Under the pieces are notes generated by a model. The model made no database searches. It was not told where the DNA came from and saw only the letters and a program-made list of their open reading frames with translations. From Candidatus Poribacteria bacterium (GTDB lineage: Bacteria > Poribacteria > WGA-4E > WGA-3G), in the NCBI GenBank assembly GCA_963664215.1, contig OY761014.1: a stretch of 64,000 nt of DNA; one strand, written 5' to 3'. The translations under genes and the position numbers were made by a program. Position 1 is the stretch's first letter, and each line of letters begins with the position of its first letter. Shown here one piece after another: positions 9,355 through 55,691 of the stretch.

Positions 9355-9383
9355 TTGACAAGAAACGTTATATAGTGTAGAAT
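9355..9383 (+). promoter_or_regulatory. Sigma70 promoter with extended -10 and AT-rich UP region
   Basis: TTGACA-17-TAGAAT preceded by TG and A/T tracts. Confidence 0.75.
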
Positions 9384-9440
9384 TAAGTGTGTAGAGGGTT
9401 GAAACGCGAGATTTTACCACACTTACGCGAGGAATTCACG

Positions 9441-9662
9441 ATGCGCCGCTCGAACACAAAAATGATTTTGACTGCATGTGAGATGTCTTTTGCCGGGAAA
9501 ACGGATAATGAGATAGCGACGCTTTTAGAAACGTCTGTCTCAAACGTTTCCCGCTGGCGGAAAAACTCACTGTGGATAGAGTTTGAACAGGAACTCATCT
9601 CCACACATAAAGAGTCATTGTTAGAAGCACATCGAACAACCCTTGAAGATAGCACATCGTAG
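9441..9662 (+). CDS. Small helix-turn-helix DNA-binding protein (copy 1)
   Basis: GKTDNEIATLLETSVSNVSRWRK HTH pattern; SD gagga. Confidence 0.75.
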   Translation: MRRSNTKMILTACEMSFAGKTDNEIATLLETSVSNVSRWRKNSLWIEFEQELISTHKESLLEAHRTTLEDSTS

Positions 9663-13100: not shown

Positions 13101-13129
13101 TTGACAAGAAACGTTATATAGTGTAGAAT
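13101..13129 (+). promoter_or_regulatory. Duplicate sigma70 promoter
   Basis: Identical to 9355-9383. Confidence 0.75.
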
Positions 13130-13186
13130 TAAGTGTGTAGAGGGTTGAAACGCGAGATTTTACCACACTTACGCGAGGAATTCACG

Positions 13187-13411
13187 ATGCGCCGCTCGAA
13201 CACAAAAATGATTTTGACTGCGTGCGAGATGTCTTTTGCCGGAAAAACGGATAATGAGATAGCGACGCTTTTAGAAACGTCTGTCTCAAATGTCTCCCGC
13301 TGGCGGAAAAACTCACTGTGGATAGAGTTTGAGCAAGAACTCATCTCGGCACATAAAGAGTCGCTCTTAGAGCCGCATCGATTGTCAACCCTTGAAGATA
13401 GCACATCGTAG
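13187..13411 (+). CDS. Small HTH protein (copy 2)
   Basis: Near-identical to 9441-9662. Confidence 0.75.
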   Translation: MRRSNTKMILTACEMSFAGKTDNEIATLLETSVSNVSRWRKNSLWIEFEQELISAHKESLLEPHRLSTLEDSTS

Positions 13412-24250: not shown

Positions 24251-24508
24251 GAAAAAATATACCTCTCTAATGCGTTATCAGTTATCAGTTGTCGGTTATC
24301 CGTTTGATAGTTTTCCGTTAAGGGATGTTGGGGTAACACGCTACCGCGCTTTGGCATTCGCCAAACGAGGGTAGATTGTTACAAACTCGCCTCTTAATTG
24401 ACAACCGAAAGGATTTTCATAGGAAATCCCGGTGAATGCCACACGGCATTCATACCGTTGATGCACCGATAACCAATAACCATGTTAAAAAAGATGTGTC
24501 TACCTTGA

Positions 24509-24604
24509 CCTTGTTTTTAACCGCCTGCTAGGGTGGGCAGGGGGCAGTTCCTGTGTTTTTGGAGAAAGGTGTTACACAGGACCTAGCAGTGCCCCCCAAC
24601 AAGG
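24509..24604 (-). ncRNA. Pseudoknotted 5' leader RNA of the 1235-aa gene
   Basis: Outer stem ccttgtt/aacaagg; P1 ggggggca/tgccccct; P2 ctgctagg/cctagcag crossing P1; internal hairpin tcctgtgt/acacagga. Confidence 0.6.
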
Positions 24605-24613
24605 TATTTTAAT

Positions 24614-24642
24614 AGGATACAACATTTCCCACAAAAAGTCAA
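24614..24642 (-). promoter_or_regulatory. Sigma70 promoter of the leader and 1235-aa gene
   Basis: TTGACT-17-TATCCT with extended TG; predicted start just before the outer stem. Confidence 0.6.
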
Positions 24643-24913
24643 TACTTTTTATATTATAACGTATTAACGCATATATCTCAGAAATGGGTACATTAAAACG
24701 GCACGTGCCGTTAAACTTCCTTTTTCTTCTGTAGGAGGGAACTCCGATTCCCGACTCTTCAAGTCACTTTAGGGGTTTTCTTGGTTCGTAGTCGTGCGAT
24801 TTATCGAACGTTCCCCAATCCTGCCTCCCTTAAAGGTCAATCAGGGTCCATCACAGTTCAGACAACAAAAAAGGCACGGTTCCTACACCGCGCCTCTTAC
24901 TGACAACTGAAAA

Positions 24914-27010: not shown

Positions 27011-27039
27011 TTGCTAAAAAGCAGGGAAAATGATATAAT
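27011..27039 (+). promoter_or_regulatory. Sigma70 promoter of GIY-YIG cassette 1
   Basis: TTGCTA-17-TATAAT. Confidence 0.75.
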
Positions 27040-27041
27040 AT

Positions 27042-27192
27042 AGGAAGGTAGTGGGAAGGGGGCGTAACCCCTTCCCGATGCCAGAAACAATCAACCAAGT
27101 CACTACACCGGAATCTTGCTTTGGCATTTTCATTTTAACACACTTCCTTTTGAAATGTCAAGCGAGGTCCCTAAACCTACAGGAGCTTGACA
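27042..27192 (+). ncRNA. Conserved pseudoknotted leader of GIY-YIG cassette 1
   Basis: aggaag/cttcct outer stem; gtagtg/cactac; gggaagggg-gcgtaa-ccccttccc; atgcca/tggcat crossing pair; tgtcaagc/gcttgaca hairpin abutting the SD; homologous to 42663-42814. Confidence 0.6.
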
Positions 27193-27194
27193 GT

Positions 27195-29549: not shown

Positions 29550-32500
29550 CTAATACCCCTGCCACCGAACAACACCACTACGACCCCCAACACCCAACAC
29601 GCCCCCCGCACCATCCGTAACATACACAGGTGCTTGAATCGCGGGTAACACCTCAATCGCCTGGGTAAGCGTGATCACCTGTCCATCCGCATCCGTCGCG
29701 GTATAGGTGTAATCCGTCTCCGCCATCACTGCAATCGGTGTGCCGCTGAGCGTCCGGGTCCTTGGATCAAACTTGAGTCCCTGGTCTCCAAGCGACGCTG
29801 AAAAGGTATAGGTAAATGCGTTTCCAATCGGACTTACCCCCGCCGGTAGCACGACAGGGGTCATCTCTACATACTGCACCAGCGTCAATTTTGGAAGTGT
29901 AGAAACCTCAAAAGTGGGTGCTACATCGTAATACAATGCATCTCCAAACCAGAGCGTCGTATTCCCACCAGCATCTACGAGGAACACCTGATCCCCACCG
30001 TCTGTTATAAGATATTCACGATTTGGGTCTGCCATTAGAACGACTTCCGGTGTAACCACAGGTGTCACCTGCCGCCCCCGGATCGTCGTGAATTCGCTAC
30101 CCGTCCGCACCGACATCACCTGCATCGCGATGAGATACCCTTCAACTTCCGGGGCATCCGCGAGATACTTAAAACAGACAATCTCGCCTAAGTTCACGGC
30201 ATAGAACGCACGCACCCTGACATTGATGAGGTACGCTAAATCCTTGAAACGCTCCAGATACTGCTTAGAAATAAACTCTACCCACGGCAACTCGTGTTCT
30301 GTTGTGCTTAACGCCAACTGCAACGGATTCGACCCGAATTGCGACTGACTCGCTGCGTCTAACACCCGACTCCGAACAGGGGATCCCTCTTCAATCGAGT
30401 TATAGAGATGATCGGAATCCAAGGAGACGGTTACCTCCAAATACGGTTCGGACGACCGCATTGTGTTTCGTGCCTCGATTGGACGGTGAACAAACGTAAT
30501 AAGTGCATCCTTCGGATGCTCTTCAATCGACGTTGCTAATTCACCGCGGGAAATACCTGTAAAGTGCGTTGCTGTCCGACCCCTATACCGCACCAATTCC
30601 GAACCGATGAGCAGATACCCCGTCGCCGGGAACGCATGATTCGCAAACGCATACGCGATTTCTGTGTCAGCGACCCCTACGGTTTCCGCTGCCACGAACG
30701 CACCGCGGGCCCGACGGTTCTGTAAACTTAAGATGTTCTTGTCAATGGAGACCGTCGCACCGACGGTCGTCGCCAGCGATGTCAAGACCTCCGAGATAGA
30801 ACCCTCTGTCGGGAGCACCGGCACTTTGTAACGGTATTTCCTCCCAAACGAGAACCATTGCCAATTCTCAGGTCGAGACGCATCGCTTTCGGGCTGCCCT
30901 ATCGATGCCGGGTCCCCATATCCCATCACGAAATGTAAATCGTTGTCGAAACTTAAGCCCCGCATCGGGAGCTGTCCGCCGTAGGCACGATCGTTATCAA
31001 AATAGACGTTCCCAAGCGTTTCGATCTCGCCTGTCGCATGAATCCGTTTCAAAAAGCCTTTCGCCTCGGACGCATCAAACACAATATCGCGATTGCGCGC
31101 TTCAAATAGATAAGACACCGCGGGCGACTCTACGAAATAGACCTCCCCATCGTGTTTCGTTAGCATACACGGTCCGTATTGCACGAAATCATACTTCGCT
31201 AATGCCCGGAACTCCTCCGTCACCTGGTTATACCGATACAGTATCACACCCGCATCCGTGCTGATGTCCCGACCATTACGGCTCACCGGCACGATTAAGT
31301 AGATGTTATCACCGTCTACAAGCACTTCATGCACCCCAAGCCACGCGCCCTCCTCAGCGTCGTCAAACTCCCTGAGATGATATAGGTCTTGAGTCCGCTC
31401 GAAAATAAGTGTAGGCGCTGCGGGCGGTGGTTCCGGTTGGAAGGCAGCATTACCATCAAAGGTTTCTGTAAGTGTGATATACTCAAAATCCCCTGACCCA
31501 TTGAATTTGACTTCAAGGTACTGTGCCTGACCCCATAGATGCTCGTAATGCCAGACTTCAATAAAGAAATCATCTCCTGCATCAATATCCGCTGACGCTA
31601 AACTCAATACGGTGGAAGTATCACCGTTTGAATTATAACTTGTTATCGCGTATTCGGCATACCGCGTTGGGGATGCAGGGAAATTTCCATCGCTGTCCGG
31701 TTTAACAACCGCCCATTTCCCTCCATCGTCAAAGGCACCAAATAGCTTATACTGGATACTTGTCAGATCCACTGTTGCACGGAGCCTCACGTGATACCGA
31801 CACCAATAATAATCATTTTCCGGGAGAACCCCTGAAAGATTTGATGAGATAACAGAGATTGTATCCTGAGGGGAGGCAGCCGCTATCGTTTCAAGTTGGG
31901 CATAGGTTCGGACACCTGACCTGTCTGCACCCGTTACATGCCAAACTTCTAATTCTCCAATACGCGTCGGGGGCAGTATCGGTAATCGTTTCTCAATCCT
32001 CAATGTGCTGGTCGTATCAGTCCCTTCTACCGACGCAAAGAAGACATCCTCTGACTCCATCATATCAAAGGCGAAATTCAAGTGGTTCTGATACGCATCT
32101 TTATTGCGGGTAAAGAGTGCTGAGACACTGCCATCCGATTCTCGACACGCCACACCGAATTTTGTGCCTTTCGCATACCGATAGACAAAACTTCCTTCAT
32201 TTGAGGTAAATCTGAACCCATCGCGCACGCCACGCGTGATCCCGCGCCAGATGTAATCCAAACCGCTTACACCCACCCAGTAATGCAACCCCATTTGTGG
32301 ACGAAACGCTGTCTCTTTTTCAATAAGAGGTTTATAGTGATGCACGCTCTGCTGGTAAAAGACGATCTGCGTGTTCTCGGATACACTCGCGTCATATCCG
32401 AGAGCCACCGATTGGGGGACCTTCGGGACAGGGTTCACGCTTCGGTCGAAGTCTGTCGCATCCGTCACTATTACCCCAAAGGTGTCAAAATCCCAACTTG

Positions 32501-36080: not shown

Positions 36081-39000
36081 TCAGATATTCACCCGTCCAT
36101 TGAGTTGCTCCGTCCGAGACTGTTGCTCCAACAGAATATTATCGTTCAACGTTACAGGCACTGTAACCTCAATCGTTTGCGGGGGCGCAGCAGCAGGCGC
36201 ACGACTCGGTAAAGCAAGTCCCCCTGACACATGCACCGTGTTCCCCGACACACTGATCGTATCCGCAGTCAACACCGACGGGGACACGGGCTCCGCAAAC
36301 ATAGCTATCGCGTCTTCGATTTTCGCTGTCAATTCTAACGGGTCTACCGCTAAGCCCCCATTCAAAGTGGACAGCCCTTCCACCGTCGCCCGCAAATCCG
36401 CAGCAGGCTCCCCAAGCGCATCTACAATATCACTGAATGTCTCCGAGACCGTCTCAATACGCCCCAAGGGTCCAACAATATCCGGTAACGTCCCAACGGC
36501 TGCGTTTGCCGCCGTCGTCGCATCTCTTGCCGCAATCGCTGCATCGTTTGCCGCCGTCGCTGCGTCTTTTGAGGCAACCGCCGCATCCGAAGATACCATT
36601 ACCGCATCCGATTCAGGTTGCAAAAGCGGCGCGAGTGCCTCGCTCAGTGCCGTTGCCGTCGCCTGTGCTTGTGTTTCGATGTCCGCACGCTCGGTCTCCG
36701 TCCGTGCCTCCACATCCGCAACCGATCGCTGGTTCTGGAGATACTCATCCAGCCCGCGCCGTCCAAACACCCGTTCAATAAAGTTCTCATCCGTCAACCC
36801 ACCGCTTTCCAACTCCTGCCGATAGAAGTCGTACCCTGGACTTCCCGGTGTCAGGATCCCGAACTCCGTTTGGAAGTCCTGTACATCCCGATCCCGCTGA
36901 CGGTTTAGATCAAAAAGTTCCCGCTGATACGTGTCGTCCTCCGTAAGACGAGATCGCTGATCCGCTGTGAGATCCCCGAACTCCTCATCGAACAACCGCC
37001 GTGCCGTCTCTGTTTGTAAATCTTGGAGGTCGCGCTGATACTCCCGCTGGATGTCCTCTGCCGTCTGATTCCGATCCCGTTGTAAATCGTCAAGGTCTTC
37101 ATGGAACTGTTCTTCCAACGCAAGAAGACGGTCCTTGTGAGCTTCGTTCAATTTCTCAATCGCGTCTAAACGGTCTGCCTCGTTCTCTATCTGCGCGTCG
37201 CGCACCTCTTCAATCTCATCTTGCCGACGTGCCTCACGTGCGATCGCATCCTCGCGGAGTCGTTCTATCTCGGCTTGTGCACTTTCTTCGTCTCGGAGTC
37301 GATCCCGCGTAAACTGGTTCTGGGCAGTCGTCGCTCTACGCAACGCCTGCTCACGCCGCAACTGGTTGTCTTGGCGTAAGTTTTTTAGTGCTGTCTCGGA
37401 TAACGCTAATTCATCGATACGTTTCAGCTCATTGTCATAAAAAGCATTGATCGCACGGATCAGTGAACGCCTCGCCTCTTCAAAGCCCCGTTCCGTCGTC
37501 GCACCTGTCAGATTGAAACGCGCCCGTGCAACCGCATTTTCCAATAGGTTCGATTCAGGTGTGTCTTCAAGACGCGTGCGTGGCGGTGCGACCTCTTCTG
37601 TAGGGGTATCTGCTGTGGGAGGGGTTTCTAACCCCGATTCCCTTGTGGGAGAGGTTTCTAACCCCGACTCCCTGATTGCTAATGCCGTGCCTTGTAGAAA
37701 CCCCGAAGCCTCCGTAAATGCGTTCTCTAACGCAAAGCCTACGTCCTCAAGATTGGAAACCAACCGTAGATTCGCATCAAAAAGCCGATCTGTGAACTCG
37801 TTGGTGTACCGCGTCCGCGCATTCGCTAACGCATCTTCCGTGAAGATACCCACACCCGCTTCTATAAACGCTAACTGCTGATCTCGATACGCGCTTTCCG
37901 CTTCACCGAGTCGTGTATACGCCGCCGTGATGTCCGCCGGTGCGCTGTCTTCGCCTAATAGACGGATGGCATTTTCTGCGGATGTAATGTCGCCTTGCAA
38001 CGTCCGAAGGTGGTCCCGCTGCTGTGCCGTGAATCGGAAAACCTCTGCTGGGGGTTCCGGTTCGACCTCTTCTGCTGTGGGAGGGGTATCTGCTGTGGGA
38101 GGGGTTTCTAACCCCGATTCCCCTGTGGGAGAGGTTTCTAACCCCAACTCCCTGATTGCTAACGCTGTGCCTTGTAGAAATCCTGAAGCCTCTGTAAATG
38201 CGTTCTCTAACGCAAAGCCGACATCCTCGAGATTGGAGACCAACCGCAGGTTCGCATCAAAAAGCCGATCCGTGAACTCGTCGGTATACCGTGTCCGCGC
38301 ATTCGCTAACGCATCCTCCGTAAAAAGTCCCACGCCCGCTTCTATAAACGCTAACTGCTGATCCCGATACGCCGTTTCTGCCGCACCGAGGCGTGTATAC
38401 GCTGCCGTGATTGCGGCTGGGGTGCTGTCTTCGCCTAATAGACGGATAGCGTTTTCTGCCGACGTAATGTCGCCTTGCAGCGTCCGAAGCAGGTCCCGCT
38501 GTGGTCCCGTGAATCGGAAAACCTCTGTCGGGGGTTCCGGTTCGAGAACTTGTGGTGTTTCCGTTGGCGCGTCGTCCCCAATCGGCTGCACGACCGCCTG
38601 CTCAGGTGCTTGAATGTCAACAATCTCTTCAGGAATCCGTTGCACTTGGAGTGCCGCCCCTGAAAGGATACCCGACATATTCCGGATCGCCGTTACTAAC
38701 TGGAATCCAACGGCTTCCAGAGCATCTAAGAGCTCGCCGTTCGCCGCTTCAATCTCGTTACCGAACCGCTGACCTGCAAGCGTCAACGCACGCTGTCTCG
38801 CGTCTTCCGTGATGTGCGTCGCGTCCGTGATGAAAGCAACGATTTGCGTCTGGACTGCTTCTTGCGCATTCGCTAAATCCGTGTATGCTCTGGTAATCTC
38901 TTGGGGTGTGCTGGTGGCATCGAGGTCATCCACAACGCCCTGTGCGATCGCAACAGTTTCCTCAAGCGGTGCTAACACCCGCCGCTGCTCCGGTGAAAGC

Positions 39001-42000
39001 CTGAAAATGTTTTCGAGTGCCTCGGTCGCCGCCGCTACGGTCTCTTCAACCACCGCCCCGACATCCGAAACGACATCCGAAACGCCTGTCCCTTGGGCTG
39101 CTGCGACTTCAGCCTCATACGCCGCCTCACCATACTGCGCACGGGCGACATCTTCTATCGCCTGTCTGTCCGTGCCAGTGGCTTCGGCAATCTGACGCGC
39201 AGTCAACTCACCTCTTTGCCCCTCGCTTTGCAGCTGACGGATAGTGTTTAATTGCTCGTTGCGTGCGTCGTTGAGCTCCTGGATGACATCAAATTGTTGG
39301 GTACCGAACAACGCATTGAAGATGTTCATCGCTTCCTGCTGCGCATCAAAAAATTGGTTCGTTGCATGCAGTGCCCTGTTCCTGAAATGGTCGACATTCT
39401 CACCTGTGGCAAGCGCATCTTCATAATCCGATACCGCGGCGTTCATCCCTTGCTGCAATTGCGTGGCGATCGGGTCAAAGATGTTCCGAAGATGTGTTTC
39501 GATGACATCTATATCCGTAATGCCGATCAGCTGCTCCAAAAGCGACTGGATAATCTGCCCATCGAAGTTCGTCGTGCCACCAGCCGTCTCTTGCGCCGAC
39601 CGAACCCCACGCGCAAAATGCCTGACGACCGCAAGACGCGCCTGCTCATCTTCAAAAGCGTCCCGGTTGCGCGCTTCAAAGTCTCTTCGCGCCTGCCTCG
39701 CTTCTTCGCCTTGCCTGAAAATATTATAGGGGAGTAGCACGGCTTGGGAAATGTCGCCTTGCGCAAACTTGACGAGACTCTCTACATTCTCCGCAACGTC
39801 CGATAACGCACTCCCGGAATCAAACGCAACATCCGCAAACGCCGTCGCAAGTTTACCTAACGCACCAATCGCATCTCCGATCGGGTCCTCTAAATCTCGA
39901 AACTTGTCACCCGCATCCGCCGTGCCGTCGGCAACTTCAGCCACGACCGTATCCAAACTCTCAAAAGCACGCTCGGTGAGTTCCGCGCCCTGTTTCGATG
40001 CATCCAGCGCAGTCGTCAAGTCCTCAACAGCAGGGGTTGTCTCTCTGTCAACGACATCCGTAAAGTCGATATGACTTCTTTTTGAGGTATCCAAGGCATC
40101 ACTGTAATCGTAAAGCCGTGCCTCCGCTTCCCGAAAATCCGCAGTCCCTGTCTTGACAGTCTCGCTGACTTGGTTTAAAGGGCCAAGCGCTGCGTCCGCA
40201 GCAACCGATGTCGCTTCTAACTCAGCAACATACGCCGCAAGCGGATCGTCTAACCCATCAAAGAACCCGGCAGTGTGCAACGCTTCTAACTCGGCTTGAT
40301 GATCGACCACCGAAACCGTCGCAAGGTCCACCGCTGTCGTGTATTCACCGACTTCACCCGCCGCAACTCGCCAGAAATCATCGAACCCTTCTAATTCTTG
40401 GTTGAGATTCTCAAATTCCCGGATATGCCGCTGCGCCGCCGAAATCACACCCAAATATTCTGTGAACGCAACCGCGGCGGTCTTGACGGCTGTTCCCTGT
40501 TCTTCTGTTGCGGCTGTCGTCGCATCCGTCCCATCCTTCAGTGTGCCTAACCGGGATGTCGCCTTGTCGATCTCCGTGTTGAGTTCAGACTGGCGATCTT
40601 TCGCGGCACCCAATTGACGCTCATATTGCTCGATCGCAGGGTTCGTCTCACCAACTGCCGTGTCTTTCGCATTCTGGAGCAACCCTTCATACCGTTCGAC
40701 CTCCGCATTCGCGCTCCGAAGCTCTGTCTGTAAGTCCGAAAGCCGCGCCTGCTGCTCCTGTGCCAACGTCGCATTCTCACCTAACGCCGCCGATGCACCC
40801 CCGAACGCCATCTCCAGTTTCTCGATCTCTGCCGTCAATTCCGGGACACGCGCACGTGCCGTTTCAAGCAGCCGCGCAAACTGTTCCGTTGACTGATTCG
40901 AGATGCCGGCTTCCGATGCTTTCCGTAGCTCTTCCTCATACCGCGCTATATTCGCAGTCGTCTGCTCCAGTTCAGTCTGTAATGCCTTGAGTCTCGCACG
41001 CCCCACATCTCCTGCAGTCGCATGTTCTTCAAGTGCCGCCGTCGCCGATGCCACGGATTGCGCCAACCGATCCGTCGACTCGGACGCTTGGGCACCCTCG
41101 TCGCGCCAGAACATTATGAACTCTACAGCATCTGCCACCCCGCCGATGAAAGCCGTCAGGTGATCCGAAAGTTGTGCTATGCCTGCCCCAAGCGCGCCGA
41201 TAGCATACGCAGTTCCCTGTATAATAGGATTCAAGAGATTCACCAGCGCACCGGCAAGTTCTAAGACCTCGCCTAACAACCCGCCAAGTGAATCCGCTAA
41301 CGCACCGATAGGGGGTCCCACTATCCGAATCAGCGCACCCCCGAGCTCCTGCAATGCCTCGAACAGCGACTGCGCACCCGCAATAATCTCCTGTATCGGT
41401 TCCGGCAACGTCGAAACATCTTTCGTGCCAACACGAACCACATCCAGGAATTCCGATAACACACGTGCAGCATCCGTAATGGTCGGGAGGAACAGGTCCC
41501 CAATTGCCGCTTTGGTCAGAAGTATCGAGTTCTGGAGTGTGTCTATTACAACGATATAACTGTCCGCGGGCGGAGCATCAAAACGTCTTGATAACTCATC
41601 AAACGTCGGAATCAACAGGTCCCGGATGCTCCCCCCAACTCTCCGATACGCCGCATGCAATCCCTCAAGGTTCGCTTCTACACCGTGAACATCGCCAAGT
41701 GCCTCCAAGAAGCCAGGAATTTGTTGCACGATGGTGCGAAAGTCGCGGAAGTCAACTTTCCCCAGCTGCACTGCCTGGATCAACTGCTCCATCGCTAACG
41801 AAGCCGTCGACGCATTGCCACCCAAGGACACAATCGTCTGACCGACCGTCAACAGAATCTTGTCTGTGTCCTCCGCACCTAACCCCGCGGCACGGAGTCT
41901 ATTGGAGTAACGCGTCAACGCTTCAAAGTTCAACCCCGGCAAGTTCGCAATCTCAATCAGAGACTCAAGCCGTTTCTCTGCTGCTTCCGAACTCCCTTCA

Positions 42001-42419
42001 ATCTGGGTGATCGCCCGTGTGTATTGCTCTAACCGACCCGCCGCTTGAATGCTCTCAATCCCGAAACGACCGATCTGATGGCCAACCGCCGCAACGCCTA
42101 ACGCCCCCAGCACGCTTCCCGCGCCACTCAGCGAACGCGTAAATACGCCAACCCCCCGGTTAGCGAACCCGATCGCCCCCGTGAGTTCCGTTGCCCCCCT
42201 GCCCGTGCGCCGAAACCGATTCCCAAGCCCCTCGACCTCACGCGCAGTTTCACGCGCCTCGTCACCCAGCCTATCAACACCCGTCGCCGCATTATTCGCA
42301 GCACCCTGCGTCTGCCCCAATTGCTGACGCAGCTCACGCACCTCACCCTGGAGTTGCTCGATCTCGGTGCGGGCTTTCTTTGAGTCGGCTCTGAAGCGGA
42401 TTTGTACATCAGCAGGCAT
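36081..42419 (-). CDS. Tail tape measure protein (2112 aa)
   Basis: N-terminal coiled coil; tape-measure motif (LPGLNFEAL..LAMEQLIQAVQLGKV); Ala/Glu-rich helical body; position after the chaperones. Confidence 0.92.
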   Translation of the reverse strand: MPADVQIRFRADSKKARTEIEQLQGEVRELRQQLGQTQGAANNAATGVDRLGDEARETAREVEGLGNRFRRTGRGATELTGAIGFANRGVGVFTRSLSGAGSVLGALGVAAVGHQIGRFGIESIQAAGRLEQYTRAITQIEGSSEAAEKRLESLIEIANLPGLNFEALTRYSNRLRAAGLGAEDTDKILLTVGQTIVSLGGNASTASLAMEQLIQAVQLGKVDFRDFRTIVQQIPGFLEALGDVHGVEANLEGLHAAYRRVGGSIRDLLIPTFDELSRRFDAPPADSYIVVIDTLQNSILLTKAAIGDLFLPTITDAARVLSEFLDVVRVGTKDVSTLPEPIQEIIAGAQSLFEALQELGGALIRIVGPPIGALADSLGGLLGEVLELAGALVNLLNPIIQGTAYAIGALGAGIAQLSDHLTAFIGGVADAVEFIMFWRDEGAQASESTDRLAQSVASATAALEEHATAGDVGRARLKALQTELEQTTANIARYEEELRKASEAGISNQSTEQFARLLETARARVPELTAEIEKLEMAFGGASAALGENATLAQEQQARLSDLQTELRSANAEVERYEGLLQNAKDTAVGETNPAIEQYERQLGAAKDRQSELNTEIDKATSRLGTLKDGTDATTAATEEQGTAVKTAAVAFTEYLGVISAAQRHIREFENLNQELEGFDDFWRVAAGEVGEYTTAVDLATVSVVDHQAELEALHTAGFFDGLDDPLAAYVAELEATSVAADAALGPLNQVSETVKTGTADFREAEARLYDYSDALDTSKRSHIDFTDVVDRETTPAVEDLTTALDASKQGAELTERAFESLDTVVAEVADGTADAGDKFRDLEDPIGDAIGALGKLATAFADVAFDSGSALSDVAENVESLVKFAQGDISQAVLLPYNIFRQGEEARQARRDFEARNRDAFEDEQARLAVVRHFARGVRSAQETAGGTTNFDGQIIQSLLEQLIGITDIDVIETHLRNIFDPIATQLQQGMNAAVSDYEDALATGENVDHFRNRALHATNQFFDAQQEAMNIFNALFGTQQFDVIQELNDARNEQLNTIRQLQSEGQRGELTARQIAEATGTDRQAIEDVARAQYGEAAYEAEVAAAQGTGVSDVVSDVGAVVEETVAAATEALENIFRLSPEQRRVLAPLEETVAIAQGVVDDLDATSTPQEITRAYTDLANAQEAVQTQIVAFITDATHITEDARQRALTLAGQRFGNEIEAANGELLDALEAVGFQLVTAIRNMSGILSGAALQVQRIPEEIVDIQAPEQAVVQPIGDDAPTETPQVLEPEPPTEVFRFTGPQRDLLRTLQGDITSAENAIRLLGEDSTPAAITAAYTRLGAAETAYRDQQLAFIEAGVGLFTEDALANARTRYTDEFTDRLFDANLRLVSNLEDVGFALENAFTEASGFLQGTALAIRELGLETSPTGESGLETPPTADTPPTAEEVEPEPPAEVFRFTAQQRDHLRTLQGDITSAENAIRLLGEDSAPADITAAYTRLGEAESAYRDQQLAFIEAGVGIFTEDALANARTRYTNEFTDRLFDANLRLVSNLEDVGFALENAFTEASGFLQGTALAIRESGLETSPTRESGLETPPTADTPTEEVAPPRTRLEDTPESNLLENAVARARFNLTGATTERGFEEARRSLIRAINAFYDNELKRIDELALSETALKNLRQDNQLRREQALRRATTAQNQFTRDRLRDEESAQAEIERLREDAIAREARRQDEIEEVRDAQIENEADRLDAIEKLNEAHKDRLLALEEQFHEDLDDLQRDRNQTAEDIQREYQRDLQDLQTETARRLFDEEFGDLTADQRSRLTEDDTYQRELFDLNRQRDRDVQDFQTEFGILTPGSPGYDFYRQELESGGLTDENFIERVFGRRGLDEYLQNQRSVADVEARTETERADIETQAQATATALSEALAPLLQPESDAVMVSSDAAVASKDAATAANDAAIAARDATTAANAAVGTLPDIVGPLGRIETVSETFSDIVDALGEPAADLRATVEGLSTLNGGLAVDPLELTAKIEDAIAMFAEPVSPSVLTADTISVSGNTVHVSGGLALPSRAPAAAPPQTIEVTVPVTLNDNILLEQQSRTEQLNGRVNI
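37600..38560 (-). repeat. Two near-identical ~480-bp (160-aa) internal repeats in the tape measure, each with a REP cluster
   Basis: EPEPP.EVFRFT..QRD.LRTLQGDITSAENAIRLLGED.. x2; REP clusters at 37600-37672 and 38077-38152; a more diverged third unit at ~38600-39010. Confidence 0.9.
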
Positions 42420-42630: not shown

Positions 42631-42659
42631 TTGCTAAAAAGTGGGGAAAGTGCTATAAT
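42631..42659 (+). promoter_or_regulatory. Sigma70 promoter of GIY-YIG cassette 2
   Basis: TTGCTA-17-TATAAT. Confidence 0.75.
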
Positions 42660-42662
42660 AAT

Positions 42663-42814
42663 AGGAAGGTAGTGGGAAGGGGGCGTAACCCCTCCCCGAT
42701 GCCAGAAACAATTAACCTAAGTCGCTAAACTCGGATCTTGCTAAAGGCATTTCTATTTTAACAAACCTTCCAAAGAAATGTCAAGCGAGGTCCCCAAACC
42801 ATAGGAACTTGACA
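42663..42814 (+). ncRNA. Conserved pseudoknotted leader of GIY-YIG cassette 2
   Basis: Homologue of 27042-27192; tagtg/cgcta (G-U substitution keeps pairing), atgcc/ggcat, ggaagg/ccttcc, tgtcaag/cttgaca. Confidence 0.6.
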
Positions 42815-43945
42815 ATGGGCTGCATCTATAAAATCACCAATACGGTGAACGGTAAAAGTTACATCGGACAAACAATTCACGATGCCGTGAAAACTCGGAT
42901 ACGTCAGCATCTTAATGGGTATCCGCATGGAAGCAAACTTGTCAAAAAAGCCATTGCGAAATACGGTAAAGACGCTTTCACATATGAGATACTTCATGAT
43001 GGTATTATTCCTGAATTCCTTGAAACCCTTGAAATTGAAGCGATTGAGAAGTTCAATACGCTCGCTCCATACGGATACAACCTTCAGATGGGAGGCTCTC
43101 ACAGCTCACCCTCAGCGGAAACACGTCGAAAAATCTCTGAGGGAAATAAAGGTAAAACGCGCTCGGAGGAAACAAAACAAAAAATGTCTGAAGCCGGTAA
43201 AGGCAGAAAACATTCAAAGGAAACCAGACGGAAACTTTCTAAAGCACATAAAGGTAAAAAGCTTTCCAAAGAACACCGACGGAAAATCTCGGAAGTACAA
43301 AAAGGTAAATATGTCTCAGCGGAAACGAGGCGAAAAATGTCCGAGAACAGCGCATCGAAACGCCCTGAAGTTCGGCAGAAAATTTCTGAAGCTAACAAAC
43401 GTAGAGTCTATAAACCTCACTCAGAAGAAGCCAAACGCAAAATGTCTGAATCACGCAAAGGTAGAAAATTTTCAGAAGAACACCGAAGGAAACTCTCAGA
43501 AGCACTTACAGGTAAAACTGTCTCAGAGAAAACTCGGCAGAAACTTTCTGAAGCCAACAAAGGTAAAACGATTTCAGACGAAACCCGACGGAAACTCTCG
43601 AAAGCCGGTAAACGTAGAAAGCTTTCAGAAGAACACCGCCGAAAAATATCTGAAGCACATAAAGGCAAAAAGCATTCAGACGAAACGAGGCGGAAAATAT
43701 CTGAAGCCGGTAAAGGCAAAAAGGCGTGGAACAAAGGCAAAAGGCACTCAGACGAAACGAGGCGGAAAATATCTGAATCACGCAAAGACGAAAGGTATTT
43801 ACCATCACGCAACTTGTTCTTTTCCCTTCCTGACACACTTTCACTAAAAGAAAAACGTAAAATCTTATTGAAAAAGTTTTCAGATGTTGTAAAACCAGGT
43901 ACACTTTACCGTTGGATACGCCAATGGAACTCTGAAGAAAATTAA
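42815..43945 (+). CDS. Free-standing GIY-YIG endonuclease with many NUMOD3-like repeats
   Basis: CIYKITNTVNGKSYIGQT; more than 10 S.E(T/H)RRK(I/L/M)SE repeats; C-terminal TLYRWIRQW. Confidence 0.92.
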   Translation: MGCIYKITNTVNGKSYIGQTIHDAVKTRIRQHLNGYPHGSKLVKKAIAKYGKDAFTYEILHDGIIPEFLETLEIEAIEKFNTLAPYGYNLQMGGSHSSPSAETRRKISEGNKGKTRSEETKQKMSEAGKGRKHSKETRRKLSKAHKGKKLSKEHRRKISEVQKGKYVSAETRRKMSENSASKRPEVRQKISEANKRRVYKPHSEEAKRKMSESRKGRKFSEEHRRKLSEALTGKTVSEKTRQKLSEANKGKTISDETRRKLSKAGKRRKLSEEHRRKISEAHKGKKHSDETRRKISEAGKGKKAWNKGKRHSDETRRKISESRKDERYLPSRNLFFSLPDTLSLKEKRKILLKKFSDVVKPGTLYRWIRQWNSEEN

Positions 43946-49652: not shown

Positions 49653-51014
49653 CTATTCCAATACTTTCAGTGCCTTGGCTCCTGTTTCGCCCAACACCAC
49701 GACGTAGATCGCTTTCTTCGGCTGATACGAAATCCAGCCCCAGATCTCGGAGCAGACGATGTATTCGACCTGCTTGAGCATATCCCGCGTCGTCTCGATG
49801 ATGTCTGTGTTCATTTGGGAAACGTACTCGACCGCTTTCCGCTTGTCATATACAACAAACGCATTGTGCTTCGTCGAACTGCCCCCGGTGCCTGCCTGAA
49901 TCCGATCCTGAAGGTAGTCGTGCCACCCGACCCGAACCCCCTGCGCCAACTGGTTCATTACGGAGAAGCTCCCACCATACCCGCTCATGACGGCGTTGGG
50001 ACGCTCATTCATGTTCACCAGCATCACATTCGTGCCAGCAACTTTTGCCAATTGGAGATCCGTGATATCCGGGTCATACCCGATCGCAGATGTCAACATA
50101 TAGGAACGTTTGAACTTCTTCTGGATCGAGAGCCACGCTTTCGGGGTCATCGTATCGGTTGCCTCGGAATCCAGTTCCTGCAGCCGAATCAGCGTGCCAC
50201 CGAGGTCGTCGCCACCTGCACCATGCAACATCGTCTCAAGCCCTTCATCCACTTTCGCCATGATCCGCTGGACAGCGATCTCCTCGACGTGTTCCATCGC
50301 TTTGTCAATGAACTCGACTTCCCGAAGGTGTTCATACGTGAATGGAATCGCTAACATCCGCTTTTTCGGCTGGATGGGACGCTCAGAGGTGTCGAAGGTC
50401 GCCATCGGGGGATCCGCTCCAGGGGTCCGCTGCTCCTCACGGAAGGCATCTTCATCATACTCAAGGATCGTCGCACGGTAGTCTTTCTTGCTCGTCTCTG
50501 CCATGCGCGTCGTCAATTCCTCAAGCGCGATGTCCACTTCCACGTCTTCGTCCCAGTGCGCCATCGCATCGTGGTAAGGGGTGAGCGTTGAGCCAGGCGG
50601 CGTATCATGCACATCTTGGAAAGTGCCAGCACGTTCCCAACGCGCACGTCTTTCGGCTTTGCGTGCCGCCGCTTCGATCTGCGGGCGATACACCGTACTC
50701 CGATACGCGTTCAAACACATCTCTTTGAGGGCTAACTCTTTCGCAGGATCGCCAATCACGTCTTCACAGCGAGTCGGCCAGACACCCGCAGCAGGGTTGC
50801 AGACGGTGGTCATCTCCAAATCGTCAAGCACGACCTCAAACGCTGAAAGCCGTTCGTCATCGGCACCCAACTCGCCGTCTTTCTCCGGGTCATATTGGGA
50901 ATCAATGTACGCAGAAAACGGCATGCCCGCATCCGCGGCTTGCTCGACAAGCCCAGCGCGCTGCGATGGATTCCCATACCTTTCTACGATTTCTCGTGTC
51001 GTCATTAAAGACAT
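49653..51014 (-). CDS. Major capsid protein (HK97 fold, inferred)
   Basis: 453 aa after decoration/protease genes; RMLAIPFTYEHLRE, VYDKRKAVEYV..DIIETTRDMLKQVEYIV. Confidence 0.8.
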   Translation of the reverse strand: MSLMTTREIVERYGNPSQRAGLVEQAADAGMPFSAYIDSQYDPEKDGELGADDERLSAFEVVLDDLEMTTVCNPAAGVWPTRCEDVIGDPAKELALKEMCLNAYRSTVYRPQIEAAARKAERRARWERAGTFQDVHDTPPGSTLTPYHDAMAHWDEDVEVDIALEELTTRMAETSKKDYRATILEYDEDAFREEQRTPGADPPMATFDTSERPIQPKKRMLAIPFTYEHLREVEFIDKAMEHVEEIAVQRIMAKVDEGLETMLHGAGGDDLGGTLIRLQELDSEATDTMTPKAWLSIQKKFKRSYMLTSAIGYDPDITDLQLAKVAGTNVMLVNMNERPNAVMSGYGGSFSVMNQLAQGVRVGWHDYLQDRIQAGTGGSSTKHNAFVVYDKRKAVEYVSQMNTDIIETTRDMLKQVEYIVCSEIWGWISYQPKKAIYVVVLGETGAKALKVLE

Positions 51015-53090: not shown

Positions 53091-53143
53091 ACTTATCCTC
53101 CTTTCAATCGTTGATCTAAACCTCTTCACGCTCTCTTTTTTTC

Positions 53144-53172
53144 TTGACGTTTCATGTCAAAAATGCTATAAT
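53144..53172 (+). promoter_or_regulatory. Sigma70 promoter of GIY-YIG cassette 3
   Basis: TTGACG-17-TATAAT with extended TG. Confidence 0.8.
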
Positions 53173-53178
53173 ATTGAT

Positions 53179-53254
53179 GTATTGCTGGTAGAGAATGCTA
53201 TCCTCGTCGCAAGGCGGGGTCTCTACCACCACCGAATAGCATCGGGAGCAATAC
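53179..53254 (+). ncRNA. Pseudoknotted leader of GIY-YIG cassette 3
   Basis: gtattgct/agcaatac outer; ggtagaga/tctctacc P1; atgctat/atagcat P2 crossing P1; cctcgtc-GCAA-ggcgggg hairpin. Confidence 0.65.
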
Positions 53255-53288
53255 ACTTTTAGCAATACAACCCCCGAAGGAGTTTCTT

Positions 53289-54272
53289 ATGGAAAATCCT
53301 GGTATCTATATTCTCACGTCCCCAAGCGACAAACAGTATGTTGGTAAAGATAGTAATTTGCCCAAACGTGCTACACAACATTTGCGCGGAAAAGAACCTA
53401 CGTGTCCTCGTATCCATAATGCTATCAAAAAATATGGTGCTAACACCTTTTCTCTTCAAATCATCCAATACCCCGGCATTTCGCAAGAGGCTTTGAATGC
53501 GGTGGAACGCTGGTGGATTCGCCGACTTCAAACACTGTCTCCATCGGGCTATAATCTGACCGAGGGAGGTGAGGGTGTTATCCCCTCCGAAGAAACACGT
53601 CAAAAAATAAGTAAAAAAGCCTCTAAACGCGTTGAAGAAGGCACACATAATCTTCTGGGGACGAACAACCCAAGTCACAAACGCATCGCGGACGGAACAC
53701 ACCCTTTTCTTGACAGTGAAATTCAGAGGCGTGCTCAAATAAAACGAGATGCGGTTAACAAAAAACGACTTGAAGAGGGTACACATAACTTCCTTGATAG
53801 TGATTTTCAGCGTCACAACAACCAAAAACGAATCAAGGATGGCACCCATAATTTGCTCGGAAAGGAGAATCCAAGCCATAAACGCGTAGCGGATGGCACA
53901 CATAACTTTCTTGGGGATAGCAATCCAATGAAACAACGTTCTAAAAATGGCACACACCATTTTCTTGGTAGTGATTTTCAGCGTCGCCGCGTCAAGGATG
54001 GTACGCATAACTTCCTCGGGAGTAGCCAAAATCGTAAACGACTTGAGGATGGCACACATCACTTCCTGGGCGAGAACAACCCAATGAGAAGGCTTGCCAA
54101 AGAAGGCAGACATCCGAGTACCCTCAAACGCCAAAAAGCCGAATGGTGCTATATCATTGCGTTGTCTCGGTTTTGGTATGAAATTCATGATTATACCCTT
54201 AAGCGTCGTGCCGAGTTCCTCTCGAAAGATATTCCCGATACGTCAAATGCCGAACAGGAATACCTCTTTTAG
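53289..54272 (+). CDS. Free-standing GIY-YIG endonuclease with GTHxFL repeats
   Basis: GIYILT..KQYVGK..R; GYNLTEGGEG; eight GTH(N/H/P)(F/L)L(G/D) units. Confidence 0.85.
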   Translation: MENPGIYILTSPSDKQYVGKDSNLPKRATQHLRGKEPTCPRIHNAIKKYGANTFSLQIIQYPGISQEALNAVERWWIRRLQTLSPSGYNLTEGGEGVIPSEETRQKISKKASKRVEEGTHNLLGTNNPSHKRIADGTHPFLDSEIQRRAQIKRDAVNKKRLEEGTHNFLDSDFQRHNNQKRIKDGTHNLLGKENPSHKRVADGTHNFLGDSNPMKQRSKNGTHHFLGSDFQRRRVKDGTHNFLGSSQNRKRLEDGTHHFLGENNPMRRLAKEGRHPSTLKRQKAEWCYIIALSRFWYEIHDYTLKRRAEFLSKDIPDTSNAEQEYLF

Positions 54273-54278
54273 GCATCG

Positions 54279-55691
54279 TTAATTGACGATGCCCTCTCTG
54301 ACTTGCATCCAATCTAAACTCCCATACGTCCGCAGCCCTGCGGAATGCCTGTCTTTTTCCGATTTGAACTTCTCAAGCGCGTCCTGATAGTCCTTGTCTT
54401 CAATGCCCTCCATACCCTGCAGCTCCTTGAGTTTTTTGAGGTTGTCAATCTTCGTCCCCTCCGCTTCCGCCATGGCTTTCACGTCCTGCGGATCCGGTGT
54501 GTTCTCGAAATAGAACTGGACCTTCCCTTGCCGTCCTTCCGCCCGTAAGACGTACCCAAGGAGCGTCGACATGACACCCGCAACCGTCGACTGGATACTC
54601 GATATGTTGATTCGGTAGTCACGTCTCTGTTCAACGGCATGGGACTCCGCGACCGATTCATTACTGTGCTGTTTTATGGGGGTGCTGCCCGTAGCTCTAC
54701 CCACCCGACGGTCATATAGTCTCATCAGCCCATCGACCAATCCGAAGAAACTTGTCTGCATCTGACCGCCCTTCGGCATTTCGACTTCCACGATGTCTAA
54801 ATACGCATACCCCTCGTTCGGCTTTAAAGTTGAGTACCGCTGGTTGATACCCGCAAGGAAGTCTTGGATAAATTCGTCTTCCTTATCAACATCACCGATG
54901 ACATCCGCCGGCATGAAGTCTCGCAACTTCTCCGAATCCACCTTAAACCCTGCCCGCGCCCAGCCTTGCGATTCCAAGACTCTCCGAAAATCGTGCATCA
55001 CCCCTAACATCCGAATCACATCTAACGGTGCCGATTCCAACATAGACCTGCCGAAGGGTTCATTCGGGCCCGCATTGAACGGCACATACATCACCGTCGG
55101 ATCGTCCTGTAGCGATACCCATTTCCCTTGCTGCCATTGACCGAGCTCCCAGTCGTTGCCGTGACGATTGAAACGCGCAACATAAGGATCCATCACCGCA
55201 ATGTCCATCGCCATGTCCGCCGCTTCGTTGAGTTCCAGCTCCCAAAAAATAGCGCCGCCTTTGTAGATGCCGGCAAACACTCTGTCAATCAACACGTCCG
55301 GATCATGATGTTTCGCCGCAAGCCTGTCAAAGAAACCATCGATAACCGGGGTTGCACCTTTCGGCTTCACTTGGTAACCCCAAGATTCGTTCGCGTTCCG
55401 CAGGAAATCCTCATACGCTTTTTTGACCTCCGGGCTGATACTCGTGACGAGTTTCATGAACTGATCCACCGGCAGATGTAGCAGTTCCTCTTCTGTCCAG
55501 TTTTTCAGTTGCCACACACTTCGCGACCGTTCCGGCGGGGCAACATGATACATCGTGTGCTGCCGATGCGGATCCTGCATCGAGACGCGACCGCCACTCA
55601 ATGCCCGTGTGTTACGGTGCTTCGCAATTGCTTTTGGATTCCTGCCGAAAATCCGTTTGCTGTAGTGTTGGAGTGTCCTTTGTAGATTCAT
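54279..55691 (-). CDS. Portal protein
   Basis: 470 aa after the terminase; NEPFGRSMLESA motif. Confidence 0.75.
   Translation of the reverse strand: MNLQRTLQHYSKRIFGRNPKAIAKHRNTRALSGGRVSMQDPHRQHTMYHVAPPERSRSVWQLKNWTEEELLHLPVDQFMKLVTSISPEVKKAYEDFLRNANESWGYQVKPKGATPVIDGFFDRLAAKHHDPDVLIDRVFAGIYKGGAIFWELELNEAADMAMDIAVMDPYVARFNRHGNDWELGQWQQGKWVSLQDDPTVMYVPFNAGPNEPFGRSMLESAPLDVIRMLGVMHDFRRVLESQGWARAGFKVDSEKLRDFMPADVIGDVDKEDEFIQDFLAGINQRYSTLKPNEGYAYLDIVEVEMPKGGQMQTSFFGLVDGLMRLYDRRVGRATGSTPIKQHSNESVAESHAVEQRRDYRINISSIQSTVAGVMSTLLGYVLRAEGRQGKVQFYFENTPDPQDVKAMAEAEGTKIDNLKKLKELQGMEGIEDKDYQDALEKFKSEKDRHSAGLRTYGSLDWMQVREGIVN

Follow-up and report, generated by a model that had tools for sequence, protein, structure and literature searches.

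The window analyzed here, a 64,000-nucleotide stretch of contig OY761014.1 from the Candidatus Poribacteria bacterium assembly GCA_963664215.1, contains two structured RNA leaders, element A and element B, that are built from the same parts in the same order. Each lies directly behind its promoter, A (minus strand) at the start of a host-like gene and B (plus strand) at the start of a phage GIY-YIG gene, as an earlier note made from the DNA letters had proposed. Both combine an outer helix, P0, with a pseudoknot of two interleaved helices, P1 and P2, and a hairpin, P3. The data presented below are best explained if A and B represent one family, or two sister families, of compact 5′-leader RNAs (~80–105 nt) that had not been described before.

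Architecture of elements A and B

The interval 24509–24642, in which the first leader had been placed, is read on the minus strand. All of the helices named in the earlier note exist there (P0, P1, P2 and P3), but on that strand, in an RNA running from ~24606 to 24502. A sigma-70-like promoter (24642–24614) combines a −35 hexamer TTGACT (24642–24637), a 17-nt spacer and a −10 hexamer TATCCT (24619–24614). The predicted start is A24608/A24607, with ~7 nt between the −10 hexamer and A's RNA, and the promoter is kept in 12 related loci. The 5′ strand of P0, UACCUUGUU (24606–24598, read as (U)ACCUUGUU), is followed by the P1 5′ strand GGGGGGCA (24597–24590) and the P2 5′ strand CUGCUAGG (24589–24582). 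Hairpin P3 (24581–24549) has an 8-bp stem, UCCUGUGU/ACACAGGA, and a 17-nt loop whose length and sequence vary among relatives (4 nt in the related locus L070). After a 2-nt joint, AC (24548–24547), the P1 3′ strand UGCCCCCU (24546–24539) forms the 8 bp of P1, seven Watson-Crick pairs and a terminal G-U pair. The linker L3, GCCCAC (24538–24533; UCCCAC or CCCAC in relatives), leads to the P2 3′ strand CCUAGCAG (24532–24525), which forms an 8-bp P2 that crosses P1, and then to GCGGUUAA (24524–24517), which includes GCGG. The CCCAC of the linker is invariant in 13 of 13 A-type leaders. Two tandem copies of the P0 3′ strand complete the element (24516–24502), and a conserved tail, GACACAUCUUUUUUAACAU (24501–24483), is kept behind it in all A-type loci; RNA contigs read through this tail.

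Element B, at 53178–53255 on the plus strand, has the part order that the note had ascribed to it, the same as that of A. Its promoter (53144–53172; TTGACG, a 17-nt spacer and TATAAT, with a predicted start at 53178/53179) is kept in the B-type loci of IMG/VR. The P0 5′ strand UGUAUUGCU (53178–53186), the P1 5′ strand GGUAGAGA (53187–53194) and the P2 5′ strand AUGCUAU (53195–53201) are followed by hairpin P3, CCUCGUC-GCAA-GGCGGGG (53202–53219), and the P1 3′ strand UCUCUACC (53220–53227). The linker ACCACCGA (53228–53235), the P2 3′ strand AUAGCAU (53236–53242) and CGGG (53243–53246) then precede the first copy of the P0 3′ strand, AGCAAUACA (53247–53255). A second, identical copy (53261–53269) lies 5 nt past the first and 19 nt before the ATG. 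The nested part of B has a folding z-score of −5.1 and that of A a z-score of −2.0. In the minimum-free-energy fold of the full B leader the second P0 3′ copy is used, and the Shine-Dalgarno (SD) sequence GAAGGAG (53276–53282) is unpaired.

The tandem duplication of the P0 3′ strand, a feature absent from the earlier note, occurs in four versions of unrelated sequence: A, B and two variants of B found in coral and sponge runs, B2 and B3. In A, AACAAGGU (24516–24509) is followed directly by CAAGGUA (24508–24502), and the single 5′ strand serves both, ACCUUGUU pairing with copy 1 and UACCUUG with copy 2. The duplication reads AGCAAUACA-CUUUU-AGCAAUACA in B, ACUAUGCU-GAGAAAA-ACUAUGC in B2 and AACUAYGCU-GNUGG-AACUA... 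in B3. Because both copies match their own 5′ strand in every version, P0 can form in two registers, and judging from these sequences the two alternatives appear to be under selection.

The full arrangement is not expected by chance. With a descriptor requiring P1 of at least 7 bp, P2 of at least 6 bp, an adjacent hairpin of at least 5 bp and an outer stem of at least 6 bp, only A and B matched on both strands of the window, and 388 kb of unrelated viral DNA gave no match apart from true relatives of B. A version restricted to Watson-Crick pairs matched once in the window; B does not satisfy it because of the G-U pairs in its hairpin. Applied to 200 dinucleotide shuffles of the window, the comparison by which the note had proposed to judge its claim, this stricter version of the full architecture gave 0 matches. 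The pseudoknot and hairpin alone occurred at a mean of 0.025 per shuffle, and interleaved 7+7-base complements alone are common, at ~10 per window. One such arrangement, at 30475–30546 on the plus strand (interleaved 7-bp complements, a UUCG hairpin and then CGGG), was set aside as chance because it lies inside, and antisense to, a gene for a 1909-amino-acid tail protein and has no promoter.

Covariation and relationship of the two leader types

The clearest evidence that the fold is real and conserved, as the earlier note had suggested, comes from the B-type leaders. In orthologous loci from IMG/VR the endonucleases are 52–59% identical and the leaders ~90% identical, with compensatory differences that lie mainly in P2 and P3. 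The forms of P2 are AUGCUAU/AUAGCAU, AUGCUAC/GUAGCAU, AUGUCAG/CUGACAU, AUACGAC/GUCGUAU and AUGUCAU/AUGACAU; one pair of P1 is changed from A-U to G-C, and four pairs of P3 are changed. Across six B-type sequences, all 186 of 186 cells are standard pairs and 8 pairs are changed on both sides, and sliding the partner columns as a control lowers pairing to 31–50%. RNAalifold, which is blind to pseudoknots, recovered P0, P1 and P3 from the B-type alignment and added a mini-hairpin, CCGA/UCGG, that holds the P2 3′ strand as its 6-nt loop. Thus, B can be drawn as a three-way junction whose small hairpin makes a kissing contact with the 7-nt bulge that separates P1 from P3.

Sequence from coral and sponge runs extends this group. 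Contigs from these runs contain B-like members that agree with B only in the core, at 53186–53247 or 53202–53235. One run (X25) carries P2 changes on both strands, at 53198/53199 and 53238/53239, which are the same as in the P2 of the L026 type. In the B2 and B3 variants (runs X24, X25, X35 and X4) the core is kept and the outer helix is replaced, yet still complementary, as AGCAUAGU/ACUAUGCU in B2 and AGCGUAGUU/AACUACGCU in B3; B3 also has a new P2, GUUUCAC/GUGAAAC. Across the wider B-like group P0, P2 and P3 vary freely, and there is little change in P1 (GGUAGAGA/UCUCUACC), in AMCCGA at the end of the linker or in UCGGG. A search with a pattern for this wider group returned chance matches only. 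In the same four runs, the orthologous B locus has a depth of only 12–29, against ~250–430 for B-like cores with different outer stems (B2, B3 and others).

Leader A serves a gene for a 1235-amino-acid secreted protein (24250–20543, minus strand) with Big_1, dockerin and LDL-receptor-B-like repeat domains and a C-terminal sorting domain of the type IX secretion system (T9SS). A search with the N-terminal 415 amino acids of this protein found 16 relatives at 29–67% identity, and 10 of the 11 whose upstream DNA was examined have the A leader. In 8 of these 10 the promoter, leader, SD sequence and signal peptide are almost identical despite diverged proteins (30–67% identity; L066, L069, L071, L072 and L119–L122). 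Since the leaders are near-identical within what looks like a constant 5′ cassette, their identity alone says little about selection on the RNA. The cassette of A (24642–24230, minus strand) resembles the constant 5′ regions of variable surface-protein families.

The other two of the ten leaders are informative. In L067, P2 is CUGCGAGG/CCUCGCAG, with a compensatory change from U-A to G-C, and CAAGG occurs three times after the pseudoknot, giving three P0 3′ copies. In L070, P1 is GGGCGGCA/UGCCGCCC, with a C-G pair inserted on both strands; the first P0 3′ copy has decayed, and the second, CAAGGUA, is intact and pairs with UGCCUUG via a G-U pair. In the A-type alignment 98.6% of cells are paired and one pair is doubly changed, a count from which the P1 insertion of L070 is hidden because MAFFT misaligns it. 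Compensatory change on the A side thus amounts to one P2 pair and one inserted P1 pair. Additionally, the G-U pairs in A's P1, B's P3 and L070's P0 fit an RNA of the given strand rather than duplex DNA. One paralogue, L068, has the SD sequence and signal peptide but not the pseudoknot module, indicating that the element is a separable module. Its promoter (within L068:700–1200; TTGACA, an 18-nt spacer and TACAAT) runs directly into AACCCGAUCUUUUUUAUCAUA, which is similar to the conserved tail of A.

Searches with the A pattern gave chance matches only in IMG/VR, and one true relative each amid chance matches in scans of metagenome and genome contigs (L052 and L060). A variant of A in two runs (X5 and X49) has a P2 3′ strand changed at 24528 and 24529; its P2 5′ strand is not readable.

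Whether A and B descend from one leader is harder to say than that they have the same architecture, which is the safe statement. A covariance model built from B-type leaders did not match A under default filters; with filters off it placed A in the correct register, at a nonsignificant 4.9 bits. By that standard the two are not callable homologues. The earlier description of their sequences as unrelated is fair in this respect, and goes too far in another: the P2 core UGCUA/UAGCA is identical in A and three of six B-type leaders, and 13 of 23 positions agree in a hand count over the 5′ strands of P0, P1 and P2. CC...GG also flanks the P2 3′ strand in both. Distant common ancestry is plausible. 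Two short motifs that had been offered as features of the class did not hold up among relatives. CCAC is absent from several B-type leaders (GCAACCGA, AAACCGA and AGAAACCGA), and CGG is lost in two A-type relatives, the GCGG of A becoming GGGG in L067 and GGAG in L070. The suggested kissing-type pairing of the P2 3′ flanks is clear in B, where RNAalifold found CCGA/UCGG independently, but in A it comes down to CC/GG.

The note had been unable to name the RNA class, and comparison with Rfam bears this out: no Rfam 15 family (4227 models) reaches its gathering threshold anywhere in the window. At E≤10, the regions 24400–24720 and 53100–53320 gave four partial matches at chance level (mir-310, a Na+ riboswitch fragment, PK-IAV and PhotoRC-I). 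Candidates considered by name and rejected for lack of an Rfam match were the hepatitis delta virus (HDV)-like, CPEB3, drz, twister, pistol, hatchet and hammerhead ribozymes, exoribonuclease-resistant RNAs (xrRNAs) and known riboswitches, as well as a ‘Poribacteria-1’ motif. We found no similar DNA in GenBank phages and no paper on such an element in the literature.

Pairing of the mRNA 5′ end as a possible function

Promoter geometry places P0 6–8 nt after the −10 hexamer and would leave 0–2 nt before P0 in both leader types; the ends of RNA contigs differ between runs. The A leader is present in sponge metatranscriptome runs of several studies, with word depths of hundreds to thousands in the four runs examined. 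One RNA-run contig (24446–24608) ends at the predicted start 24608 and spans the P0/P1 junction. RNA contigs also run past the U-run after A, for at least 187 nt downstream.

Our tentative reading, drawn by analogy and held at somewhat under even confidence, is that each domain governs the mRNA to which it belongs, by holding the 5′ end of that mRNA in a helix. Each RNA would be the first ~100 nt of an mRNA from a sigma-70-type promoter. In the fold, P0 pairs the first nucleotides of the predicted transcript with a strand 70–95 nt downstream and continues into the 8-bp P1; the P2 5′ strand (the 7–8 nt after P1 5′) pairs with a segment 3′ of P1, which in B sits in the loop of the CCGA/UCGG mini-hairpin, and hairpin P3 fills the gap between P2 5′ and P1 3′. 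This fold, its conservation, its place directly behind the promoter and the lack of a terminator or of a trap for the ribosome-binding site are what the data show; the start site, the effect on stability and any switching are inferences. Acting in cis as RNA, such a locked fold would keep the mRNA 5′ end base-paired and bar decay enzymes that depend on the 5′ end (RppH, RNase E or RNase J type), thereby setting the lifetime of the mRNA. Two features, the pair of P0 registers and the invariance of P1/linker/CGGG in the B-like group, suggest that a ligand or protein may modulate whether P0 closes.

The analogy rests on known protection of paired 5′ ends. According to papers from Belasco, 5′-terminal stem-loops reportedly stabilize mRNA and 5′-terminal base pairing is said to control decay by RNase E. 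RppH requires at least two unpaired 5′ nucleotides, and 5′-terminal base pairing shields bacterial mRNAs from RppH and from entry of RNase E or RNase J (PMC3997798). In the stem-loop stabilizers of the ompA, papA and aprE leaders, the subject of work by Belasco and Bechhofer, a helix that begins ~0–3 nt from the 5′ end acts in cis whatever the distance to the ribosome-binding site (RBS), in the way proposed for A and B. Those are simple hairpins with little sequence conservation, whereas A and B have a long-range outer helix, a covarying pseudoknot, an invariant core and a duplicated 3′ strand. Another likeness is to xrRNAs. These RNAs form a ring around the 5′ end by means of a three-way junction and two pseudoknots, and lie in the 3′ untranslated regions of eukaryotic viruses. 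In flaviviruses and plant viruses they block 5′–3′ exonucleases (PMC5760640, PMC8374639). They share with A and B a compact pseudoknotted fold in which shape would matter more than sequence, but A and B differ in helix order, they would form the extreme 5′ terminus of mRNAs made by bacteria and phages, and no Rfam xrRNA matches them.

Several observations weigh against the reading as a 5′-end shield. A simple 5′ hairpin suffices to stabilize an mRNA, which leaves the elaborate pseudoknot unexplained. The near-invariance of P1, AMCCGA and UCGGG in the B-like group, in which P0, P2 and P3 covary, calls for sequence-specific recognition that a passive shield does not need. The near-identity of A leaders among paralogues may reflect a recombining 5′ cassette instead of selection on the RNA. 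As for expression, there are other RNA contigs that stop at 24615 or 24624 or continue past 24643, beyond the promoter, and contig depths do not separate RNA from contaminating DNA; the B-like core in sample S22 has about the same depth in RNA as in DNA (ratio ~1).

The alternative that survives best, and that we consider possible though less probable, is a riboswitch-like or protein-binding leader, in which the conserved junction (P1, the linker, and CGGG or the mini-hairpin) would bind a small molecule or protein that decides the register or formation of P0 and so alters downstream expression. The B-like group shows the conservation of complex functional RNAs, with covarying helices and an invariant junction and P1, and it has a covarying aptamer-like fold in a 5′ leader, a case that is weaker for A. 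In the RNAalifold result a bulge receives the folded-back hairpin of the three-way junction, an arrangement known from several riboswitch aptamers, and the duplicated P0 3′ strand offers two alternative pairings. The THF-I (tetrahydrofolate) and SAM-I (S-adenosylmethionine) riboswitches are examples of such a build: there too a hairpin of a three-way junction folds back along the neighbouring helix, its loop pairing with an internal bulge, and the helices covary around a conserved junction. Unlike those, A and B have no sequence or model match and no recognizable expression platform, and the genes behind them, a surface-protein family and a homing endonuclease, are not metabolic. Both are kinds of gene that need regulation. 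No intrinsic terminator or SD-sequestering helix was found after A or B, and the second copy of the P0 3′ strand provides the only alternative pairing found in the leaders. A stands at a long and variable distance from its start codon (~100 to ~250 nt, ~250 in the window, with insertions resembling repetitive extragenic palindromic (REP) elements between), A and B share almost no unpaired nucleotides that could form a common ligand pocket (the 4.9 bits above), and no Rfam aptamer matches even at E≤10.

A bolder version joins this idea to the 5′-end shield. A and B would be two specificity variants of a new sensing RNA class (riboswitch, protein-responsive switch or new ribozyme) whose output is the accessibility of the 5′ end, toggled by the two registers of the outer helix; the phage would have taken up the device that its host also uses, so that endonucleases and surface proteins answer the same kind of signal. 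We regard this as speculative and rather improbable.

It is unlikely that the structured 5′ domain has a function separate from the mRNA, either as a stable small RNA derived from the leader or by modifying RNA polymerase in cis, as in put-like processive antitermination. put sites immediately follow the promoter, as A and B do, the genes behind A are long and stand in arrays of large genes, leader word depth in sponge metatranscriptomes is high, and in one run (X11) the leader is covered and the coding region is not. The excess depth is, however, explained by the many paralogues with the same leader, no terminator follows the element, and the RNA contigs that continue downstream speak against a small RNA. 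Additionally, put RNAs are two simple stem-loops and not a pseudoknot, and the short endonuclease gene has no obvious need for antitermination.

We disfavor an HDV-type ribozyme, and give little credence to self-cleavage that would process the mRNA 5′ end, for example leaving a decay-resistant 5′-OH. The strand order of the nested double pseudoknot of HDV-like ribozymes, P1-P2-P3-P1′-P2′, is indeed found in A and B, as is a P1 of 7–8 bp beginning with G, and a G-U pair stands at the base of A's P1. Small ribozymes often lie near phage and endonuclease genes, and the C-G-A directly before the P2 3′ strand of B is reminiscent of the J4/2 joint of HDV, which has C-G-A-A. The likeness does not extend to the catalytic parts. 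HDV-like ribozymes have a short P3 (~3 bp) with a 7–8-nt L3 that forms P1.1, whereas P3 of B has 7 bp, three of them compensatory pairs, closed by a GCAA or GCUU tetraloop, that of A has 8 bp, and the nucleotides after P1′ are A/C, not G; this leaves no L3 and no way to form P1.1. No helix lies between P1′ and P2′ where P4 and the unpaired catalytic C of J4/2 would be. The C's of B's linker are paired in CCGA/UCGG, and A and B have no C position, and no candidate catalytic nucleotides, in common in register. The extra outer helix, which HDV-like ribozymes lack, pairs sequence 5′ of the would-be cleavage site, an RNA contig spans the P0/P1 junction, and no Rfam ribozyme family matched even weakly.

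Least probable of all is an element that acts as DNA, as an operator to which a repressor or the endonuclease itself binds or as a recombination site in the constant 5′ cassette, with the RNA fold incidental: three copies of a 7–9-mer (one inverted, two direct) do resemble sites for protein binding, I-TevI binds DNA to repress its own promoter, and the near-identical promoter, leader and signal peptide of diverged A paralogues recall recombining surface-protein families, but interleaved 7–8-nt complements with compensatory changes in P1, P2, P3 and P0 are a prediction of RNA pairing, G-U pairs are A-C mismatches on the other strand, and the P0 repeats change between variants without a linked DNA-binding gene.

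Two further systems with structured RNA beside nuclease genes differ from A and B. The translational control hairpins of phage homing-endonuclease genes (T4 I-TevI, seg and mob) are comparable to B as a structured leader before a free-standing phage GIY-YIG gene, but they sequester the RBS, whereas B leaves its SD sequence free. Type III toxin-antitoxin loci pair tandem pseudoknot repeats (ToxI-like) with an endoribonuclease gene; A and B are single-copy, with only the 7–9-nt P0 3′ strand repeated, and their downstream genes encode a GIY-YIG DNA endonuclease and a secreted protein.

If confirmed, A and B would establish a new RNA family with a complex fold from Poribacteria, a phylum without cultured members, and its phages, a family present in many sponge and coral metagenomes and metatranscriptomes. 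They would also be a rare case of one RNA architecture used for a host gene family and for phage homing-endonuclease genes. The covarying duplication of the outer-helix 3′ strand points to control via the pairing state of the mRNA 5′ end, and we know of no bacterial riboswitch-like element that has been shown to work in this way. As a small modular element (~80–105 nt; L068 lacks exactly this module), the leader could be a portable 5′ stability or regulatory part.

Genes and other leaders in the window

The gene behind A is reasonably called a host gene, on the strength of its T9SS sorting domain, its host-like neighbours and paralogues in non-phage contexts. Its position is just beyond the border of the phage module, a terminator-like site (24898–24869) precedes it, and the left part of the window is host-like, with an ABC ATPase, a radical-SAM enzyme, a WD40 protein and three giant LTD-domain proteins. 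An orthologous leader and gene occur in a Candidatus Poribacteria metagenome-assembled genome (L060). Paralogues stand behind LTD-domain genes, adjoin a Rep3 gene or adjoin IS200/IS605 genes. REP-like multi-copy repeats lie in and upstream of the A leader region (24274–24307, 24429–24462 and 24724–24760); their word depth reaches ~10,000 in metagenome runs from sponges, and many contigs are interrupted at these sites. Other repeat families, for example tgtaggagcgatctcccgatcgcgac, are found beside IS200/IS605 genes in related loci.

The gene behind B encodes a GIY-YIG homing endonuclease (53289–54272, plus strand). Gene and leader occupy the interval between the portal gene and the head genes of a prophage, and the head genes are on the other strand. 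The structural module of this prophage (27984–57949, minus strand) includes genes for the large terminase (55884–57317), portal (54279–55691), major head (49653–51014) and tape measure (36081–42419) proteins. The module also contains three free-standing GIY-YIG genes, which run on the other strand and have one consensus promoter each. Among the upstream regions of 46 diverse viral GIY-YIG genes, a relaxed descriptor gave no convincing match, indicating that GIY-YIG genes do not generally have this fold.

The other two GIY-YIG/NUMOD3 genes of the prophage have a different conserved leader of ~150 nt (27011–27194 and 42631–42815, plus strand) behind a promoter with TTGCTA, a 17-nt spacer and TATAAT, which is also found at L073:430–600 and, on the reverse strand, in L069. 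It has a strong 5′ hairpin, GGGAAGGGG-CGUAA-CCCCUUCCC, and a 7-bp stem, UGUCAAG...CUUGACA, that encloses the SD sequence right before the ATG and resembles the classical RBS-sequestering hairpin of homing-endonuclease genes. We considered whether this leader is a permuted version of A and B (GGUAGUG...CACUAC), but the putative P1 and P2 showed no consistent covariation in four sequences, and we regard it as a different leader.

Lastly, two of the three paralogous LTD-domain genes (~1000 amino acids) on the host side have identical promoters, TTGACA with a 17-nt spacer and TAGAAT, and identical leaders (9355–9470 and 13101–13216, plus strand), both of which contain a 7-bp stem, AAGUGUG...CACACUU.

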